DNA from: Calditrichia bacterium
GTDB taxonomy: Bacteria > Calditrichota > Calditrichia > RBG-13-44-9 > J075
DNA: 64,000 bases
NCBI GenBank assembly: GCA_050633245.1
Contig: JBOEGD010000011.1
Span: 64,001-128,000, forward strand
Direction of reading: 5' to 3'
Part shown: piece by piece, positions 13,793 through 55,006 of the stretch
How positions within the stretch are numbered: the stretch's first letter is position 1
How the letters are laid out: every line of letters starts with the position of its first letter
Translations under genes and position numbers: made by a program
Notes under the pieces: generated by a model
Seen by the model: only the letters and a program-made list of their open reading frames with translations
What the model was told of the DNA's origin: nothing
Database searches by the model: none

Positions 13793-13892
13793 AGACTGGA
13801 GCAGTTTTCAAAACTGCTCCAGTCTTTCTACAAAACTGCTCCAGTCTTTCTACAAAACTGCTCCAGTCTTTCTACAAAACTGCTCCAGTCTT
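13793..13892. repeat. REP-like palindrome copy 1 with 22-bp tandem amplification of its 3' arm
   Basis: AGACTGGAGCAGTTTT-C-AAAACTGCTCCAGTCT (13793-13825); unit CAAAACTGCTCCAGTCTTTCTA at 13809, 13831, 13853 and partial at 13875. Confidence 0.95.
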
Positions 13893-31398: not shown

Positions 31399-32418
31399 TT
31401 ATTTCCTGATATAGGGGAAATTTCCACTCTTTGGGATCTCTAAGTGTCCTTTTGAAGCTAAAATATTTGTCGCATCAGTATATATCAGGTGATACCACCA
31501 AATAAAGAATTCTTCGAACGTAATTTCATCAGCGTATCCGGTTTCATAATAAACCTTATTCATGTATTCACGATTGTCATTAAGGATTGAAAGTAATTTT
31601 GGAAGGTACGCATCGGCCATCTTCCGAAAGGCGATATTGTCTTTGGCACTTACTACAGGTGCATTATGGAGTATTGAATCCTTAAAGGCTGAATCAGACC
31701 TTAATCTCTTTGCGAATGTTATGCGGTTATTTCCATATACGCTGTAAGATATTGTATCATTTATTTTTCCAAACTTATTTCCATATATACCAAATTTTTC
31801 CTTTGGGTAATTTGGATTTTGGATGATGCTATAATAATAATGTTTACCATGCCTTTCAGGTCTATTGTCTTTTTGTAAAAAATCTCTTTCTACATTATTT
31901 ATTTGCCAATTGTCCAATAAAACATTGCTCAATATCAGAAATGACATCGTTGAGAAAGGTTGAATTTTTGACAACTCAGTTGTCACATATAACTTTATTG
32001 TATTCAGAATTTCTTCCTCAACCGATTTTGCAATCATTTCTGAAATGGGCTTTGCAAGCTCCATGAGTTTTAGCCCTTCAGCATTCGAAGCAATAAAAAC
32101 AGTTGGTCTTAAATCATCTTTGTTATGCAACCAATTTTTTGATGTCAGCAGGTCTATTTTATTTTGAGTAAGGCTATCTGTCCACCCGGCTTTTTTTTGA
32201 AAAGATTTAACATCTATTTTATGATGCAGAGAAACGAGGAATAAATCTATACTATCTTTTCTTGAACGAAAATCGGGGAAATTGTCGCCGCGTGATATCA
32301 AGCTATGTTCATACTTTGAACTAAATATTTCATTCAGACTCAGCTCATTAGTCGTGACTTCTTGATTGCAAGAAAATGAAATAATTAAGAGTAAAGGGAT
32401 AATGTATCTCATTAGCAT
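31399..32418 (-). CDS. Hypothetical lipoprotein (AT-rich gene)
   Basis: 339-aa ORF, lipobox SFSC, C-terminal ITFEEFFIWWYH. Confidence 0.75.
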   Translation of the reverse strand: MLMRYIIPLLLIISFSCNQEVTTNELSLNEIFSSKYEHSLISRGDNFPDFRSRKDSIDLFLVSLHHKIDVKSFQKKAGWTDSLTQNKIDLLTSKNWLHNKDDLRPTVFIASNAEGLKLMELAKPISEMIAKSVEEEILNTIKLYVTTELSKIQPFSTMSFLILSNVLLDNWQINNVERDFLQKDNRPERHGKHYYYSIIQNPNYPKEKFGIYGNKFGKINDTISYSVYGNNRITFAKRLRSDSAFKDSILHNAPVVSAKDNIAFRKMADAYLPKLLSILNDNREYMNKVYYETGYADEITFEEFFIWWYHLIYTDATNILASKGHLEIPKSGNFPYIRK

Positions 32419-32538
32419 TCCTTTGTATAGTTCATACGGTACAGACTATTTTCAAATCAGAAGTGGAAGTGTTTAATCGAATGAAGGGGATTATTTTTAC
32501 CCGGGCACACAATAAAATTAATCCAGAATACAAGCATT

Positions 32539-32565
32539 TACGCTGTCGGCCCAAGAAATGTTACA
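32539..32565 (-). promoter_or_regulatory. Candidate ECF-sigma promoter
   Basis: Minus strand TGTAAC-N17-CGTA ~120 nt upstream of 32418. Confidence 0.4.
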
Positions 32566-32619
32566 AGGCTGTGTGAATATCCAATGTAATAGCGGTTGAT
32601 AGAAGGGGAGTAGACGAAA

Positions 32620-32678
32620 AAACTGGAGCAGTTTTCAAAACTGCTCCAGTTTTAGAATAGAAAAAGTCCTCACCACGT
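32620..32678. repeat. 59-bp direct repeat, left copy (contains REP-like palindrome copy 3)
   Basis: AAACTGGAGCAGTTTTCAAAACTGCTCCAGTTTTAGAATAGAAAAAGTCCTCACCACGT identical to 36122-36180. Confidence 0.97.
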
Positions 32679-32967
32679 AGATTGTAATTTAGAATTTTTC
32701 TTTCAGTCTGATTGAGCCCGTTACCAAAATTGAAACCACCTTCTCTAAAATGGAGTGACAATTGTATCTCCTTAGCTGGCTTTCCCAGCGTATGGCTTCC
32801 GGATTAGAGGAAAAAAAAGAGCGGGGTAGATGACTTCTGAAAAGTTTTCACTATAATAAACTAAAGTCATTGGTAGATTCATATGCGTCAACCATTAGAA
32901 GCTGGCAAAAAGAGTTTTTTAAATATCACTCCCGAATTAAGAACTTAACAATGCATAGGGCCCTATT

Positions 32968-35900
32968 ATGGATTGGTTCTATCTACAACCTTTTTCACTC
33001 CTGGCTCTAACCCAGTCAATTATAGCATTCTTTATCATGCTTTACCTTCTGAGCGTAAAAAAGAAGAGCAGTGCCACCTGGATGCTGGCACTGGCAATCG
33101 GCGCATTTGGTCTGTTCTGGGGAATAAAGTTTATCGATTACAGTGAATCCGGACTGTCGCCGCTGCCTATTTCTCTTAACCCTCTAGACGGCATGATGAT
33201 AGGAATTTGCTTCTTCGGATTTTTCCACTTTGCTTATGCTTTTCTGGGGAACCCATACCCTCGGGAATCGAAGATCGCTCTGGGGCTGACGCTATCTTTT
33301 ATTAGCATTCATATGTTTTTGGGCTTCCATCAGGCAATAACACAGCTGGATTCTTCAAACATCATGGAGTTTATCCTCACCATTGGCTATCTCCTGATGA
33401 TCTGTTGGGCAACAGCGGTTTTCCTGCGTAAAAGACACATTCTCCTGAACGCTTCAGGAGAAAGGCCGAATTGGCTGGTATCAACAGGTGAGGGAGAAGC
33501 TCAGGCATTAAGAGCCTTTGCGCTATTAACCTTTTGTATCATGCTGCTGACATTGCCGGGATTTTTAACCGGAGCAAATTCTTCACCTTTATGGGTTGCC
33601 TATGTTGAATATTTGGGTCAGGTGACCCTTCTAATTGCTTTTGTCGTCGTTTATATCAATCATGCCGCAGAACCGACTACGTTTTTATTAAAGCTGACCG
33701 GTCTGTCCTTAACCACTATTCTGGTTGTGCTGGGTCTTGCCTCTATGATGCTTTTTCCTAATGCCGAATTGGTTCTCTATAAGACAACCGGCTCTCCTCA
33801 TGCATACAACACACCGATTCCGGAGCTGAAGTCGATGCGCTTTACACCAAATGCACATGGAGGTTACTCTACGGTGTTTATACCGCGATCCTATGATCCG
33901 GATATTGGCGATAATCTTGAGATTGGTGTGGAAGGTGATTCCCTTGTTGAGCTGGATTTTAGCTTTCCGTTTTATGATACTTCCTGGGATGAAATCTATA
34001 TTGACTCAAATGGACTTATAACATTCGGCGGAGCATACCGCAGCACCAGCTTTCAGTCGTTTTTTGATGACGCGCTACCTAAAATTGCACCGTATTATCG
34101 AGCTTTGGTTCCTCTGAGTTCAGAGGGGAGCGGGGTCTTCTATAAAAGCGAAGTTGATCGAGCGACTGTCACCTGGTACCGCGTCCGTGAGCGCTATGAT
34201 GCTGTAGCCGACAATGAGAATACATTTCAGTTGGTGTTACATCGCAGTGGAGACATAGATTTCATTTATGATAGAATGGAAGCTTTACCGTTAAATGGCT
34301 ATCGCGGCCTGAGGCCGGGCGGATCAAACGTTAAGTTGGAAGAAAGCCAATTTTCCCTTTCCTCCTCAGAGTCGATTACCAATGCTATACTTCCTGAGGC
34401 AATGACTATCCGGTTTGAACCGGTCATGGAAGGGGAGTATCGTATATCGCAGCTTCCTGGTCAGTTTGACCCTGAACTGGGTGAAAACCTCCAGTTGCGA
34501 AACAGGGATGACAGTACTGTTTCGGTAGGATTTCCTTTTCACTTTTTCGGTATTTCTCATGATAAAATTATCATCAATGATAATGGTATTGTATCCTTTG
34601 GACGGTCACTATATCTACCGGATGGCTCATGGTTCGATCCATTTCTTCAGTCTTACTCTGAAATCCCCATTATTGCCCCCTTTTTTGCAGACCTGATTCC
34701 AGGGGGAACCGGCGGTGTGTATTTCAAACAATATAAAGAGAGTTTCACTGTTACATGGAAACGACTTCCGGTATTGGGGCGGTTGGCACGAAATACGATT
34801 CAACTTGTACTCCACAACAACGGAACGATTGACTTTACGTATAAAGCAATCGGCCCAGCTTCTTTCGCTGTAGACCTTTGGGGTCTTTACCCAGGCGATG
34901 GTCGATCGCCTATTGATGCCGTTCGCTATCTGACCGCTGTACATTCAAGTGCAGGAAAGTCTGGGGGCGGGCTATTTGAGGATTTCTACAGATCCTGGGG
35001 CCTCGCCTCGCTTCAATACAGGCATGAACGAATGCTGCCGTTTTTTTACGTTATTATTGGAAGCACTGTATTCATTCTTCTTGTTTTTCCCTTTCTGTTT
35101 CTAATCAGCCTTGTATGGCCATTAAATGCTTTACTAAAAGGTGTTCGTCTGGTTGATGCTGGAGATCTGAATACCAACGTTCCGGTTCGAATAAATGATG
35201 AAATCGGTGTTCTGGCCCAGAACTTTAACCGAATGACAACCTCCTTAAGAACTGCAGAAGAGCAGCTGACGGCTTATGCTGAAGGACTCGAAGGAAAAGT
35301 CGCTGAGCGAACTGCCGACCTTCAGGATGCGCTTAGAAGCTTAACCGAAACCCAGGACAGGTTAATCCACGCGGAAAAAATGGCCTCTCTCGGTCAGCTA
35401 ACAGCTGGAATCGCTCATGAGATCAAAAATCCACTTAACTTTGTTAATAATTTTGCCGGGCTTTCCGTTAAACTGGCAGATGAATTAATGGAAACACTGG
35501 CTGAAGGTGAATCTGTCGAAGATGTTGTTGAAGTCCTGAAAGAGAATGCCGGCAGGATCGAAGCTCACGGTAAACGAGCCGTTGATATTGTTCAGAAAAT
35601 GATGCAGCATGCTTCTGCCCAATCAGATCACCGTGAAATTACAGATATTAATCACCTTGTTTCAATGAGCGTAGATTTGGCATATCACGGAATGAAATCT
35701 CAATTTACAGGTTTTGAGGTTCAAATTCACCGCGAGTTGGGTACTGATGTCGGTGAATTGGAAGTAATGCCACAAGGGCTTAATCGCGTTGTTTTAAACC
35801 TGCTCTCAAATGCCTTCGATGCGGTTCATGAGCAAGCCGCCGCGACTGATGCGGATTATGTTGCAAGCGTAACGGTCTTTACCGCTCGCAAGAAAGACCG

Positions 35901-36123
35901 GGTTGAAATCCGGATTTCTGATAATGGGACGGGGATTCCATTAAAAAATCACGAGAAGATATTTGAGCCATTCTTTACCACAAAGCCCACTGGAACCGGA
36001 ATTGGCTTTGGCCTCTCGCTGTCGTATGACATCATTACTCAGGGGCATGGTGGAACGCTTACGATGGAAAGTGAAGAAGGAAAGAAGACAACCTTTTCAA
36101 TTACATTACCAGTTAGTGCATAA
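32968..36123 (+). CDS. Sensor histidine kinase: multi-TM N-terminus, two nidogen(NIDO)-like repeats, TM, HAMP, HisKA, HATPase
   Basis: Two repeats F.FPFY/FF...I.I..NG.I/VSFG...IAPF/Y..L...TF/IQLVLH..G.IDF.Y; DEIG.LA.NFNRM; EKMASLGQLTAGIAHEIKNPLNF; IFEPFFTTKP.G.G.GFGLS. Confidence 0.92.
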   Translation: MDWFYLQPFSLLALTQSIIAFFIMLYLLSVKKKSSATWMLALAIGAFGLFWGIKFIDYSESGLSPLPISLNPLDGMMIGICFFGFFHFAYAFLGNPYPRESKIALGLTLSFISIHMFLGFHQAITQLDSSNIMEFILTIGYLLMICWATAVFLRKRHILLNASGERPNWLVSTGEGEAQALRAFALLTFCIMLLTLPGFLTGANSSPLWVAYVEYLGQVTLLIAFVVVYINHAAEPTTFLLKLTGLSLTTILVVLGLASMMLFPNAELVLYKTTGSPHAYNTPIPELKSMRFTPNAHGGYSTVFIPRSYDPDIGDNLEIGVEGDSLVELDFSFPFYDTSWDEIYIDSNGLITFGGAYRSTSFQSFFDDALPKIAPYYRALVPLSSEGSGVFYKSEVDRATVTWYRVRERYDAVADNENTFQLVLHRSGDIDFIYDRMEALPLNGYRGLRPGGSNVKLEESQFSLSSSESITNAILPEAMTIRFEPVMEGEYRISQLPGQFDPELGENLQLRNRDDSTVSVGFPFHFFGISHDKIIINDNGIVSFGRSLYLPDGSWFDPFLQSYSEIPIIAPFFADLIPGGTGGVYFKQYKESFTVTWKRLPVLGRLARNTIQLVLHNNGTIDFTYKAIGPASFAVDLWGLYPGDGRSPIDAVRYLTAVHSSAGKSGGGLFEDFYRSWGLASLQYRHERMLPFFYVIIGSTVFILLVFPFLFLISLVWPLNALLKGVRLVDAGDLNTNVPVRINDEIGVLAQNFNRMTTSLRTAEEQLTAYAEGLEGKVAERTADLQDALRSLTETQDRLIHAEKMASLGQLTAGIAHEIKNPLNFVNNFAGLSVKLADELMETLAEGESVEDVVEVLKENAGRIEAHGKRAVDIVQKMMQHASAQSDHREITDINHLVSMSVDLAYHGMKSQFTGFEVQIHRELGTDVGELEVMPQGLNRVVLNLLSNAFDAVHEQAAATDADYVASVTVFTARKKDRVEIRISDNGTGIPLKNHEKIFEPFFTTKPTGTGIGFGLSLSYDIITQGHGGTLTMESEEGKKTTFSITLPVSA

Positions 36124-36180
36124 ACTGGAGCAGTTTTCAAAACTGCTCCAGTTTTAGAATAGAAAAAGTCCTCACCACGT
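36122..36180. repeat. 59-bp direct repeat, right copy (contains REP-like palindrome copy 4)
   Basis: Identical to 32620-32678; overlaps kinase stop codon. Confidence 0.97.
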
Positions 36181-36201
36181 TGATGTGATGAGGACTTTTT
36201 T
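36163..36201. terminator. Terminator-like hairpin T2
   Basis: AAAAAGTCCTCACCAC-GTTGAT-GTGATGAGGACTTTTTT; pairs better (G-U) on the minus strand. Confidence 0.8.
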
Positions 36202-36234
36202 GTGCTCCCTTCATGGACGATTTTCGAACTTTTT
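36200..36234. repeat. att-like arm P, copy A (resembles a tRNA 3' end on minus strand)
   Basis: TTGTGCTCCCTTCATGGACGATTTTCGAACTTTTT; differs from 36961-36996 by 1 indel and 1 substitution. Confidence 0.9.
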
Positions 36235-36318
36235 AAATTCGGACTTATCGCTAATTGGCTGTGACAGCTACTTTTAATTTAGCTACCTTTATATTGCTAA
36301 TATAATTATATTATACTC

Positions 36319-36603
36319 ATGGAATATTTGCGTTTTGAATGGGATAAAAACAAAAGCCGGGTAAATAAGAACAAGCATGGCATCTCATTCGAAGAAGCTA
36401 AAACAGTCTTTTATGACGAATATGCCAAGCTGATTCCCGACCCGGATCATTCACTAGAAGAAGAAAGATTCATTTTACTTGGGCTAAGTAGTGTGTTGCG
36501 GATGCTGGTTGTTGTTCATATATACAAGGAAGAGGATGAATTAATTCGTATAATATCAGCGCGAAAGGCAACCAAAAAAGAAATAACTATTTATCAAAGG
36601 TAA
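36319..36603 (+). CDS. brnT: BrnT family toxin
   Basis: FEWD..K...N..KHGISFEEA..VF.D, HS..EERF..LG, RIISARKAT. Confidence 0.95.
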   Translation: MEYLRFEWDKNKSRVNKNKHGISFEEAKTVFYDEYAKLIPDPDHSLEEERFILLGLSSVLRMLVVVHIYKEEDELIRIISARKATKKEITIYQR

Positions 36604-36608
36604 GCTAT

Positions 36609-36833
36609 ATGAGAAAAGAATACGATTTTTCGCAGGCGGCCAAGAATCCTTATGCTAAAAAGCTCAAGAGGCAAATTACTATACGGATAGAGAACGAAAC
36701 GATCGAGTATTTCAAAAGATTAGCTGTAGAAACAGATATACCCTATCAAAAACTGATTAATCTGTTTTTGCGGGATTGCGCGCAGAATAACATTAAGCCA
36801 TCAATCTCCTGGAAAAAAGTGCAGCCCTCCTGA
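36609..36833 (+). CDS. brnA: BrnA/CopG-type ribbon-helix-helix antitoxin
   Basis: MRKEYDFS...NPY, ITIRI...IEYFK, PYQ.LIN..LR; directly after brnT. Confidence 0.92.
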   Translation: MRKEYDFSQAAKNPYAKKLKRQITIRIENETIEYFKRLAVETDIPYQKLINLFLRDCAQNNIKPSISWKKVQPS

Positions 36834-36901
36834 ATCAAAGTTACCTCTTCCGGCCTTCGCTTTTAAGAGCTCTTGGAATACTTGATTAAAGAGTAAAGGT
36901 G

Positions 36902-36997
36902 ATTCTCCCTGCCAAGTATAAAAAGCTCCAAGTCGTTATATTTAAATGGCTTGGGGTAAATTGTGCTCCCCTTCATGGACGATCTTCGAACTTTTTT
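36902..36997. repeat. Hybrid junction B: terminator arm T (57/67 identical to 38918-38984) fused at GCTC to arm P
   Basis: ATTCTCCCTGCCAAG...CTTGGGGTAAATTGT-GCTC-CCCTTCATGGACGATCTTCGAACTTTTTT. Confidence 0.9.
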
Positions 36998-37410
36998 GAG
37001 GGCGGTTTGAGCATAGCTGGTATATTTATTTCAACAAAAGCATTTGTCTTACTTTTGGAAACTTTCTTCATTTAGCATTTACAGGTGTCGCAAAGAACCG
37101 AAAGAAATATATGCCATTCGCGTATTTCGAAAGAGGACATTTGGAGACTACTCAGATCGTCAAAATTGTCAGCTCTGTATAGCATTCCAGATGGGCTTAT
37201 TATTAAACGTTGGCAATAGTTTTGAGCCAATTATGAGAAAAAACTGCTAATTCTGTATCTTTATTGTTATTATTGTAATAACTCCCCACAATAAATGCTC
37301 TGAACATTAGTTGGAGATATGCCGCTTAAGAGTAGGTGTGCTTCAGCATCGAAACGCTTGAATGAGGGCCTCGGGCTTCTTCTTCAACTTAATAAGATGG
37401 GGAGAGACTT

Positions 37411-38832
37411 ATGAAACTGCGCTTGAAATTCGGTAAATCATTTTCAATGCTCAACGTTCTGGTTGTATTTACTTTGAGCATGCCTAATCTTATGCTCGCA
37501 CAAGTAGTATTCAAAGACGCTGCTTTGGACTCAAATAAACTGAGAACTTATATTAACAATCGCGGTAGCATTAGTAGTCCTGATCCCTGGGGGGTAAGGT
37601 GGCCTTATCGAACGACGAACGTTTTGGATTATGCTTTTGAAATGGGGCTACTTGTAGGTGGTGAAGTCTTCGATATAAATGGCGATACAGTGCAAATCGT
37701 TAACGATGGCTTAAAACCGGGTTCGGGAGGTGAATATGATCCTGTGTCCGGTGATCCCTGGGGCTGGCTACCAGAGAGTGGCTATGATAATCCAAACCAG
37801 GGATCTGTTGCATTGAGTGATGACTCCTTAAGCTGGCCTGCAAATTGGTCTGCCTGGCCCGGAGTCAATGGCCAGGGAACTCAATCTGCCGATCTTGAAT
37901 CAATCTGGTCAATAACAGATAGTTCGAATAAAGAATTTGAATATTATCCTTTCCCTGGTGATTCCTCCATAAGAGGTTTGGGGCTCAGGGTTGTATGTCG
38001 CGGTTTCCAATGGAGTGCTCCACAATACGAAGACATAACCATCTTCACGTATGATATAAAAAATATGAGCTCTAAGCCCCTAAACAAGCTTTGGGTTGGT
38101 TTGTATTCAGATCCAAGCATAGGAGGACCAAATGATTTTGCAGATGATTTGGCAAATTATGATTCAACCGAACAACTGATCTACAGCTGGGACTCCAATG
38201 GGATAGGTGATGGTGGAATCTCTCCGAGCGTCCTTGCATTTGCCATTTTGGAATCTCCTAACAATGTTGGTCTGACCTCTGTGAGGGCTGTTCCTTTCGG
38301 AGCTGTAAATAGACCAAGAGATGATGAAAGAACCTGGGAGTTGATGAAGCCGGATTCATTTAACGTGCTTTCACAGAGCTCTGATGTGGTTCTATTTTTC
38401 GGTTCCGGTTATTTTTCATTACAACCCGGTGAGATTCAGAAGTACGCTTTTGCTCTAATGGTAAGCGATATTTATCAAAATGCTGCCGAGGCTCGCAACG
38501 CATATCAAGGTATTCTGACAGGACTACATGATACTAGCAATTCAGCGATATCAAGGCATTTTACTCTACATTTCAGTTATCCGAATCCATTTAACCCAGC
38601 TACAACAATCAGTTTTAGTTTAAAAAAACAAGCTGATATACAGTTAGAGATATATAGTATTACTGGAGAGATTGTGCGCACACTAGTGAATACAAATAGT
38701 AGTGTCGGAAGACATCAAGTTATCTGGGACGGCATGAATGACGACGGGATGAAAGTCTCATCAGGTGTGTACTTATATCGTCTTAAGAGTGAAAACTTTT
38801 TTCAATCGAGAAAAATGGTTTTGTTACGATAA
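37411..38832 (+). CDS. Secreted protein with C-terminal FlgD-Ig/T9SS-like domain
   Basis: Signal peptide, WP..W..WPG, ADLES, GLGLRV..RGFQW, YDIKN, SYPNPFNPATTI...SGVYLYRL...RKMVLLR. Confidence 0.85.
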   Translation: MKLRLKFGKSFSMLNVLVVFTLSMPNLMLAQVVFKDAALDSNKLRTYINNRGSISSPDPWGVRWPYRTTNVLDYAFEMGLLVGGEVFDINGDTVQIVNDGLKPGSGGEYDPVSGDPWGWLPESGYDNPNQGSVALSDDSLSWPANWSAWPGVNGQGTQSADLESIWSITDSSNKEFEYYPFPGDSSIRGLGLRVVCRGFQWSAPQYEDITIFTYDIKNMSSKPLNKLWVGLYSDPSIGGPNDFADDLANYDSTEQLIYSWDSNGIGDGGISPSVLAFAILESPNNVGLTSVRAVPFGAVNRPRDDERTWELMKPDSFNVLSQSSDVVLFFGSGYFSLQPGEIQKYAFALMVSDIYQNAAEARNAYQGILTGLHDTSNSAISRHFTLHFSYPNPFNPATTISFSLKKQADIQLEIYSITGEIVRTLVNTNSSVGRHQVIWDGMNDDGMKVSSGVYLYRLKSENFFQSRKMVLLR

Positions 38833-38934
38833 CTTCAAACGACCATAAGGGTGCGTAAACCAATTATAGAGGCTGGATTCTTATTCTAATATTAGAGAGA
38901 AGAGTAGAACTCTTTAAATTCTCCCTACCAAGAA

Positions 38935-38973
38935 TAAAAAACCCCAAGCCATTATGTTTAAATGACTTGGGGT
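38935..38973 (-). terminator. Intrinsic terminator of tRNA-Asn (arm T)
   Basis: Minus strand ACCCCAAGTCATT...AATGGCTTGGGGT followed by T-run. Confidence 0.85.
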
Positions 38974-38981
38974 AAATGGAG

Positions 38982-39053
38982 CTCGGGAGGAGGGATTTGA
39001 ACCCCCGACCTAGTGGTTAACAGCCACCCGCTCTACCACTGAGCTACTCCCGA
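38982..39053 (-). tRNA. tRNA-Asn (GTT), CCA not encoded in register
   Basis: TCGGGAG/CTCCCGA acceptor stem, GCTC/GAGC D-stem, GGTGG-CTGTTAA-CCACT anticodon arm, GGTTCAAATCC T-arm, discriminator G then CTCCA. Confidence 0.97.
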
Positions 39054-39082
39054 ATGTTCCCTTGTTCATATAAGAGAGGCAA

Positions 39083-39111
39083 AATATAGGCTATCGTCTT
39101 AGCATTGTCAA
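39083..39111 (-). promoter_or_regulatory. Sigma70-type promoter of tRNA-Asn
   Basis: TTGACA-N17-TATATT on minus strand. Confidence 0.8.
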
Positions 39112-54331: not shown

Positions 54332-55006
54332 ATGTTGGCAATTGAAAATTGGTGGAAATGGCTGCTGGGTAGCGGTATGTGCGTGGTTATCTGGGCGGCA
54401 TTTTTATATGCACCTCCGGCGAAAGCCTTGGGAGAATCGACGAGAATTCTGTTTTTTCATGTACCATGTGCATGGGTTGGAACGCTGGCCTTTTTTGTTT
54501 CGGCATGGGCAAGCTTTCGCTATTTGAGAACGAATGATTTGTCGTATGATCACTCAGCACATGCTGCAGCACACATTGGTTTTATCTTTACGGTATTGGC
54601 GACGGCTACCGGCTCGATTTGGGCGAAGGAAATCTGGCAGTCCTATTGGAATTGGGATCCGAGACAAACATCTATTTTTATCCTGCTGCTAATCTATGCC
54701 GCCTACTTTGCATTGCGCTCTTCTTTGGAAGATGAAGATACCCGCGCACGTCTAGGGGCCGTCTATTCGATGATCGCCTGTGTGACGGTGCCCTTTCTGG
54801 TATTCATCGTCCCGCGTATTTACGACTCTTTGCATCCCGATCCGATTATCAACGATCAGGCCAAGATTAATATGAATGCTGCAATGCAGCATGTTTTTTG
54901 GGGATCACTCCTTTGTTTTACTATTCTTTTCAGATGGATGCTTCAGCTAAAGAAGCGAAGTCTTATTATTCAACATCGACTGGAACTCGCGCGCCGCGCC
55001 AACTAG
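54332..55006 (+). CDS. ccmC: Heme chaperone-loading protein CcmC
   Basis: FHVP.AW, TGSIWA..W..YWNWDPR.T WWD motif, SLHP. Confidence 0.93.
   Translation: MLAIENWWKWLLGSGMCVVIWAAFLYAPPAKALGESTRILFFHVPCAWVGTLAFFVSAWASFRYLRTNDLSYDHSAHAAAHIGFIFTVLATATGSIWAKEIWQSYWNWDPRQTSIFILLLIYAAYFALRSSLEDEDTRARLGAVYSMIACVTVPFLVFIVPRIYDSLHPDPIINDQAKINMNAAMQHVFWGSLLCFTILFRWMLQLKKRSLIIQHRLELARRAN

Follow-up and report, generated by a model that had tools for sequence, protein, structure and literature searches.

Two small recombinase-less units stacked between terminator and P arms at the 3' end of a tRNA-Asn gene in a Calditrichia bacterium

Elements that lack an integrase and are flanked by attachment (att) sites can build up in tandem by repeated insertion at the site of a target gene, and one such kind, the cis-mobilizable elements (CIMEs), is defined as decayed integrative and conjugative elements (ICEs) or integrative and mobilizable elements (IMEs), moved by a neighbouring functional element (PMC5704250). 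Among the tandem islands behind the ssrA gene of Dehalococcoides, 15 without an integration module are described, together with a conserved motif beside the repeat (PMC3146451). Here we describe a locus on contig C11 of a Calditrichia bacterium genome (6.35 Mb, 59 contigs), within a 64,000-nucleotide stretch (the window, C11:64001-128000) in which two small units, each bounded by a terminator arm (T) and a second arm (P), stand one behind the other at the 3' end of a tRNA-Asn gene. Among known systems it comes nearest to accretion arrays whose att-flanked elements carry no integrase, as represented by the CIMEs and the Dehalococcoides ssrA islands.

The likeness to CIMEs lies in the putative att-type joints, the absence of integration genes, and what would be tandem stacking at a tRNA gene end by repeated insertion; unlike the CIMEs of that account, the units have no visible functional neighbour or ICE/IME ancestry, are far smaller (0.76 and 2.0 kb), and share a repeat of only 4–7 nt with the tRNA (PMC5704250). 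The Dehalococcoides islands likewise stand several in tandem behind a single small RNA gene and in many cases lack the module, and their element-side motif beside the repeat, which does not align to the target, recalls the P arm; they differ in sharing a 20-bp ssrA repeat, in that many carry a CcrB-like module, and in being much larger (PMC3146451). The locus is unusual in that its units are very small, have almost no tRNA repeat and would each supply a terminator, and in that one genome has several arrays. Composite arrays of the staphylococcal cassette chromosome (SCC) and ccr-less pseudo-SCC elements are recombinase-less cassettes at the 3' end of rlmH that are served by the recombinase of another element; they share with this locus the stacking, at one gene's 3' end, of recombinase-less cassettes whose flanking repeats are of att type there and putatively so here, and differ in their protein-coding target, their known recombinases (CcrAB/C) and their larger size. 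Integron arrays consist of short, mostly single-gene, recombinase-less units arranged head-to-tail with a recombination site at each joint, and in those respects they are similar; however, no intI, attI or Pc lies beside the array described here (all six PF00589 matches of the genome are on other contigs), there is no attC-like palindrome, and the array is anchored at a tRNA end. Islands of the P4 type or of large serine recombinases, such as the one at tRNA-Glu in this same genome, also insert at a tRNA 3' end, supply a new terminator and leave the old end and terminator at the far joint, but they carry the recombinase beside the tRNA, and no such gene is present in the two units.

A genome-wide search gave 35 tRNAs and one tmRNA, of which this is the single tRNA-Asn, and in an Rfam E-value scan of 36100-39100 nothing other than this tRNA scored above the gathering threshold. 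Reading away from it, the order is tRNA, T...P (unit a), T...P (unit b) and then an unrelated hairpin, T2 (Table 1). Both units have the same polarity of P, cargo and T, and their cargo genes are convergent with the tRNA. The first-pass annotation, made from the sequence alone, had proposed this as the pattern left by successive integration of related circles at one tRNA end, and the order is indeed as expected for the insertion of P-core-T circles there.

Table 1. Features of the tRNA-Asn locus (window positions) and of related arrays elsewhere in the genome (contig:positions)
Feature	Position	Strand	Description
tRNA-Asn(gtt)	38981-39053	-	ARAGORN; sole tRNA in window; Rfam: 38982-39053, 73.2 bits
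Promoter-like site of tRNA-Asn	39111-39083
GCTC core, junction C	38981-38984		T(a) and tRNA
T arm copy a	38918-38984	-	begins 3-4 nt inside tRNA end; hairpin 38941-38973
Unit a cargo	37411-38832	+	473-aa secreted protein; type IX secretion system (T9SS) C-terminal sorting tail, PF18962/PF13860; GC 42.1%
Unit a spacer	36997-37410		414 nt, GC 37.9%; without family match or recombinase relic
P arm copy a	36961-36996	-	distal end of unit a; overlaps T copy b over TTGTGCTC (36961-36968), forming junction B
GCTC core, junction B	36965-36968
T arm copy b	36902-36968	-	displaced former terminator (presumed)
Unit b cargo, brnA-like antitoxin	36609-36833	+	PF12441, 33.4 bits (cut-off 28)
Unit b cargo, brnT	36319-36603	+	PF04365, 97.1 bits (cut-off 34.5)
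P arm copy b	36200-36234	-	distal end of unit b; junction A with T2
GCTC core, junction A	36204-36207
T2 hairpin	36163-36200		16-bp stem, z about -4.2; presumed original tRNA-Asn terminator
Right repeat copy	36122-36184		H1 palindrome and left half of T2
Left repeat copy	32620-32682		62/63 identical; stops inside T2 loop; no gene to terminate
GIY-YIG relic, C-terminal-like piece	32814-32731	-	tRNA's strand
GIY-YIG relic, N-terminal-like piece	32621-32571	-	FFVYSPSINRYYIGYSH; top or joint-top genome-wide match for 2/3 queries
tRNA-Pro(cgg) array	C11:217631-220841		outside window; two units, 776 and 2321 bp; repeat of 28-44 nt of tRNA with its terminator, 94-99%; cargo: DUF433/DUF5615 pair (776 bp), TIR protein and small membrane protein (2321 bp)
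tRNA-Phe array	C22:24767-30710		~3.5-kb unit: T9SS protein, DUF433, PIN, HicB-like; second unit ~2.3 kb: Crp-like regulator, NAD(P)H-binding protein; repeat: partial tRNA copies, each with 72-93-nt hairpin-rich insert in T loop
tRNA-SeC array	C31:39229-42705		3.35 kb; 28-nt repeat of tRNA end; cargo: Crp-like regulator, MBL-fold protein, luciferase-domain protein
tRNA-Glu island	C12:63613-80232		16.5 kb; 533-aa large serine recombinase gene overlaps tRNA end

The two T arms, spaced 2016 nt apart, are 57/67 identical (85%); they form the first family returned by the repeat finder and match each other within the genome with a BLAST E of 5.5e-15. The P arms read TTGTGCTCCC(C)TTCATGGACGAT(T/C)TTCGAACTTTTT, differ by one indel and one substitution, and pair with E = 6e-8; the second repeat family corresponds to the P arms without the indel (36207-36234 and 36969-36996, 96%). 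The arms and the three GCTC junctions lie where the first-pass annotation had put them, with the same identities, and the core positions give unit lengths of 761 and 2016 bp. GCTC alone is common to all three junctions, as had been claimed, but it is a minimum and not the true extent of the block shared by A and B. At these two junctions the P-arm homology continues on the hairpin side for 4 nt beyond GCTC (+ strand: TTGTGCTC), so that in the orientation of the tRNA they are identical over GGGAGCACAA, about 10 nt. The junctions fall within the same 8–10 nt at the tRNA end. Neither BLAST nor a two-copy nhmmer profile of each arm found further copies in the 6.35-Mb genome, and the 29-mer of the P arm chosen in the first-pass annotation has 0.00 expected occurrences in shuffles; the arms are therefore not scattered over the genome, with two copies of each at this locus only. 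An exact 17-nt arm match on C18 lies within a coding region and was set aside, and a dif/Xer-like reading of the T loop was dropped on inspection by eye as it has no second arm.

The terminal bases of the tRNA add to this picture. The tRNA-Asn of relatives continues as GGAGC-A in 14 of 21 loci, giving an ancestral end, GGAGCA, that matches 6 nt of the A/B block; the P arms terminate in this same GGAGCA and also contain GTTCGAA. The acceptor-stem pair 3:70 is G:C in this tRNA-Asn only, and C:G at 21/21 of the relatives' loci examined. Because the P arms end in GGAGCA and the 3:70 pair is altered here alone, the comparison suggests that 6–7 nt of the former tRNA end persist at the far joints and that an insertion brought in the terminal bases now present.

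The state of the three hairpins bears on the order of events. T(a), next to the tRNA, has a 13-bp stem followed by a T run (z = -2.95), is the top terminator match of the region, and is predicted to be the working terminator of tRNA-Asn. In the internal T(b), 3 of the 12 stem pairs are broken; its folding does not exceed that of shuffles (z = 0.47 and -0.26), and it was missed by the terminator scan; such decay would follow because a displaced copy is no longer needed. This agrees with the proposal that each unit supplies its own terminator for the tRNA, with one copy intact behind the tRNA and the other decayed and presumably displaced. T2 is unrelated to T in sequence. Junction A consists of GGAGCACAAAAAAG and the hairpin, and in a relative (G004) the native tRNA-Asn end and flank, GGAGC followed by ACAAAAAAG and then a terminator hairpin, is identical to it over 14 nt; since a hairpin comes next in both, T2 looks like the original terminator of tRNA-Asn. 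The three states fit a succession in which T2 was the original terminator, T(b) served temporarily before being displaced, and T(a) is the current one. Junction A evidently also exists in a second organism, because a 356-nt contig of a relative from a public sequencing run, about 91% identical, spans 35880-36232 from the end of a kinase gene through the H1 palindrome and T2 into the P arm. That run, with 0.05 of the sampled words and short contigs of a relative, contributed 8 of 67 pieces among the matches listed, and its bins 36548-36791 and 37524-38499 are without cover.

We attach an even measure of belief and doubt to the account that we prefer, namely that two related and now non-autonomous integrative elements were inserted successively at the very 3' terminus of the only tRNA-Asn gene. 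On the tRNA side each element would have had the ~63-bp terminator module T and on the far side the ~35-bp arm P, and its circular form would have brought the two together in a P-core-T joint. The brnTA unit (unit b) would have entered first, between the tRNA and T2, and the secreted-protein unit later, between the tRNA and the T of the first unit, with each insertion setting a fresh terminator behind the tRNA and pushing the older one away to decay. Because no recombinase gene lies in or beside the array, the units would be CIME-like, either small from the start or eroded islands kept by toxin-antitoxin genes, which would favour the retention of such remnants. Some site-specific process is the best reading because T2 is unrelated to T and both insertions fall at the same few nucleotides. 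The account draws further support from the low GC of both units, from the similar arrays behind other tRNAs of this genome, and from the comparison with relatives, including the GIY-YIG relics that are now 6.2 kb from the tRNA.

We think it unlikely that no site-specific recombinase took part and that homologous or illegitimate recombination among terminator modules, by Campbell-type insertion of a circle through T, unequal crossing-over or gene conversion, produced the array. For the second insertion, the 67-bp homology between T copies could have served, and terminator duplications without a tRNA do exist in this genome (a 61–63-bp repeat around a kinase gene, and a 46-bp pair on C10). However, the first insertion would have had no usable T homology, T2 being unrelated, both insertions are at the same few nucleotides of the tRNA end, and the units have in common a second, non-terminator arm P that has no chromosomal counterpart, while their interiors show no mutual similarity in a self-comparison. 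The C10 pair (C10:52059-52103 and 54755-54800) is a terminator hairpin, 98% identical between copies 2.7 kb apart, with no tRNA near.

The content of the units agrees with what had been proposed at the outset, two tiny units without a recombinase, one of 761 bp with BrnTA and one of 2016 bp with a single secreted protein. Open reading frames (ORFs), Pfam and tblastn concur: brnT, brnA and one T9SS protein are the only ORFs of the two units, no integrase or transfer gene being among them, and a tblastn search of 32400-39100 with the genome's nine recombinases found no relic (best E = 0.08). The brnTA pair has the expected family matches and the toxin first, with a gap of 5 nt between the genes; a PF14384 match scores 25.1 bits, slightly below the cut-off of 26.1. 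GC content is 36.8% in unit b (36205-36964), placing it in about the lowest 1–2% of the genome's 1-kb windows, and 40.8% in unit a, compared with a genome value of 45.3% (1-kb windows, sd 3.0%). BrnT homologues occur in 32/86 genomes of the class, the best at 69% identity. A DNA search of phages gave no match and one of plasmids matched the brnTA genes alone, on two small plasmids of uncultured bacteria at 65–72% identity.

The genome encodes six tyrosine recombinases (PF00589), on contigs other than that of the array, and three serine recombinases (PF00239; two large, one small), at C25, C17 and C12 only. Three of the tyrosine recombinases are short (190–202 aa; C2:40475-41047, C20:169380-169952 and C17:27746-28354), and each stands beside genes of lipoprotein or T9SS type; two of these enzymes, near-identical paralogues, have similar gene surroundings, and they are possibly switches of the invertase type. 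The remaining tyrosine recombinases are one phage-type and two Xer-like enzymes. The first-pass annotation had favoured a serine over a tyrosine integrase on account of a 4-bp core, and this preference is unsupported because the core is longer than was stated there: the shared block is about 10 nt, of which 6 are matched by the ancestral tRNA end. In large serine recombinase elements, attP and attB have little in common beyond a 2-bp crossover and form no long direct repeat. Tyrosine systems and Ccr-type serine recombinases normally stack into an existing attL; classical large serine integrases are not known to target it. Shared blocks of 7–10 nt, like stacking of this kind, are ordinary in tyrosine systems, and both also occur with Ccr-type serine recombinases, as in Dehalococcoides (PMC3146451) and in SCC. 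A large serine recombinase flanked by the same arms, which the first-pass annotation had advised looking for, was not found; in the genome the arms occur only at the tRNA-Asn locus.

These observations bear on the proposal that the units were minimal from the start and are still mobile, with their recombinase (preferably a serine integrase) supplied from another locus and the tRNA end as an integron-like platform. It would agree with four tRNAs of the one genome being followed by at least seven small units without a recombinase, with the presence of two large serine recombinases, one of which works at a tRNA 3' end, and with the tandem stacking of Dehalococcoides ssrA islands with a CcrB-like serine recombinase (PMC3146451). 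The P arms are also better conserved (one substitution and one indel in 35 nt) than the T arms (10 differences in 67 nt), but by our estimate only this difference is not significant at these lengths. We nonetheless regard present mobility as quite improbable. No other arm copy was found in the genome, the family, the class or the contig collections searched, the internal T(b) hairpin has been lost, the block shared by A and B is longer than 4 nt, and classical large serine integrases are, as said, not known to target attL. On neither strand does junction B fold better than shuffled sequence, P pairs with nothing, and an attC-like fold of the joint was not found. No circle or empty site came to light in the data compared, which included no genome of the same genus. 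With the arms nowhere else in the sequences searched and no cognate recombinase found, the active platform served in trans that the first-pass annotation envisaged is not upheld. A more specific form of this idea, to which we give a comparably low probability, would have minimal T-cargo-P cassettes target the last nucleotides of tRNA genes, bringing a replacement terminator and perhaps terminal tRNA bases and moving in trans, with tRNA ends acting much like integrons in gathering genes for toxin-antitoxin pairs, defence and secreted proteins; cassette-borne terminal bases could explain the swap of the 3:70 pair from C:G to G:C in this tRNA-Asn alone.

Outside the genome, a 20-nt P-arm pattern gave 2 matches in genome contigs, 5 in metagenome contigs and 0 in viral contigs, and all 7 were rejected as chance since they lie in coding-like sequence without the GTGCTCCC context. 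A T-arm pattern gave one match, in viral contigs, likewise judged to be chance. The search of the genome and its relatives that had been suggested for the arms shows them to be confined to this locus in the genome, with no copies in the family and class genomes compared.

Several results weigh against the successive insertion of two related elements. The T+P joint is absent by BLAST from 15 other genomes of the family and 85 other genomes of the class, and no larger relative with the same arms was found in the searches of family, class or contig collections. None of the genome's nine recombinases can be tied to the arms, all of them lying elsewhere and leaving no relic at the locus, and a comparison of the tRNA-Glu island joint with junctions A, B and C gave p = 0.09–0.31, the lowest value (0.09, junction B) not being significant. 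Very little sequence is held in common with the tRNA, at present 4 nt, or 6–7 nt relative to the ancestral end. Finally, of the 11 loci of the best BrnT homologues in relatives, none has a tRNA within 1.5 kb.

Arrays of comparable form occur elsewhere in the same genome. Among the 33 tRNA and tmRNA genes with enough downstream sequence, four (Asn, Pro-cgg, Phe and SeC) are followed by repeats of their own end; matches at tRNA-Ser and tRNA-Gly were excluded, as these reflect neighbouring paralogous tRNA genes. The repeats behind the four tRNAs bound units of 0.8–3.5 kb, all below the genome GC, and a Pfam scan of cargo ORFs showed no recombinase among those covered. At Pro, Phe and SeC the arrays have tRNA repeats of 17–44 nt, like those of P4-type islands; at tRNA-Asn, P has no significant similarity to the tRNA 3' end (p ~0.2), and no tRNA repeat of about 15 nt or more is present. 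The tRNA-Glu island, with its own recombinase, brings its own terminator and keeps CCCTTGGGAGTAC, a 13-nt tRNA repeat, and the old terminator at its far end. The repeats at tRNA-Pro and tRNA-Phe contain the local, species-specific terminator at 93–99% identity, and so do the tRNA-Asn repeats of three relatives of different genera (~98%). For such repeats local copying or conversion is easier to envisage than a foreign attP, because they contain local species-specific terminators, and this favours recombination among terminator modules without a dedicated enzyme.

The tRNA-Asn loci of relatives show a conserved 5' side, with CBM48 at 8/12 loci, a pduO-like gene at 7/12 and serC at 6/12, and a variable 3' side: none of the window ORFs on that side has a homologue at any of the 12 loci. 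The cargo behind the relatives' tRNA-Asn varies, including a PIN toxin pair (G004), T9SS proteins, a PLD-like protein and a NACHT protein, and no recombinase was found there in the 46 scanned of 68 ORFs predicted within 8 kb in 11 relatives. In three relatives (G001, locus L051; G002, L030; G026, L035) the tRNA-Asn is followed by a small GIY-YIG gene of ~87–89 aa and then by an altered partial tRNA copy with a copy of the terminator (72–77 bp, ~98% identical). In the partial copies a GC hairpin replaces the anticodon-stem region, or the T loop is interrupted, and the units are in tandem in G001 and G002. A GIY-YIG-like reading frame also stands directly behind tRNA-Asn in G032 and G035, and loci L029 and L034 were grouped with those having a GIY-YIG gene in this position.

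Relics of a GIY-YIG gene lie 6.2 kb downstream of the tRNA-Asn described here, beyond a 1051-aa histidine kinase gene that is bracketed by the 61–63-bp direct repeat. The two relic fragments are in permuted order, with the left repeat copy between them, and the layout resembles the joint between tandem GIY-YIG cassettes behind relatives' tRNA-Asn. We read it as a probable remnant of such a joint, later entered by the kinase gene, which would make the GIY-YIG gene an ancestral neighbour of tRNA-Asn that now lies 6.2 kb away. Both repeat copies contain H1 (CTGGAGCAGTTTT.AAAACTGCTCCAG), a palindrome resembling repetitive extragenic palindromic (REP) elements, of which there are 53 copies at no more than 3 mismatches (23 exact) on 23 contigs. 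The H1 copies in the window are at 13796, 15491, 32623 and 36125, and in the copies compared H1 is positioned just after genes with a T9SS tail.

The units themselves might then descend from tandem GIY-YIG cassettes of terminator, gene and dead tRNA end, in which cargo took the place of the nuclease and P would be what is left, heavily altered, of a dead tRNA end. The succession of tRNA-Asn, terminator, GIY-YIG gene, altered pseudo-tRNA and terminator, partly tandem, in G001, G002 and G026 and the relics of such a joint at 32571-32814 speak for this descent, as does P itself, which occupies the place of the dead tRNA end, contains GTTCGAA and ends in GGAGCA. Compared with the genome's own tRNA ends, P best matches the tRNA-Asp T arm (13/15, shuffle p = 0.02–0.03), a weak lead. 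Nevertheless we consider this origin very improbable: the similarity of P to the tRNA-Asn 3' end is not significant, the cargo genes point the opposite way, no GIY-YIG gene stands between the tRNA and an altered tRNA copy in the two units, and no GIY-YIG relic was found inside them or in the Pro, Phe and SeC arrays. Successive insertion of two related elements remains the reading that we prefer, with appreciable weight left to the three alternatives.

Should the units be no more than fossils, then this is a common type of insertion hot spot in which the scars happen to be unusually easy to read. If they are as they appear, a 761-bp toxin-antitoxin element between att-type arms would be among the smallest integrative units described, and the array would offer a concrete route by which gene pairs and single accessory genes could move and accumulate at tRNAs without a recombinase of their own. 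The presence of several arrays beside an intact tRNA-Glu serine-recombinase island, in one genome of a little-studied lineage, makes this question testable.

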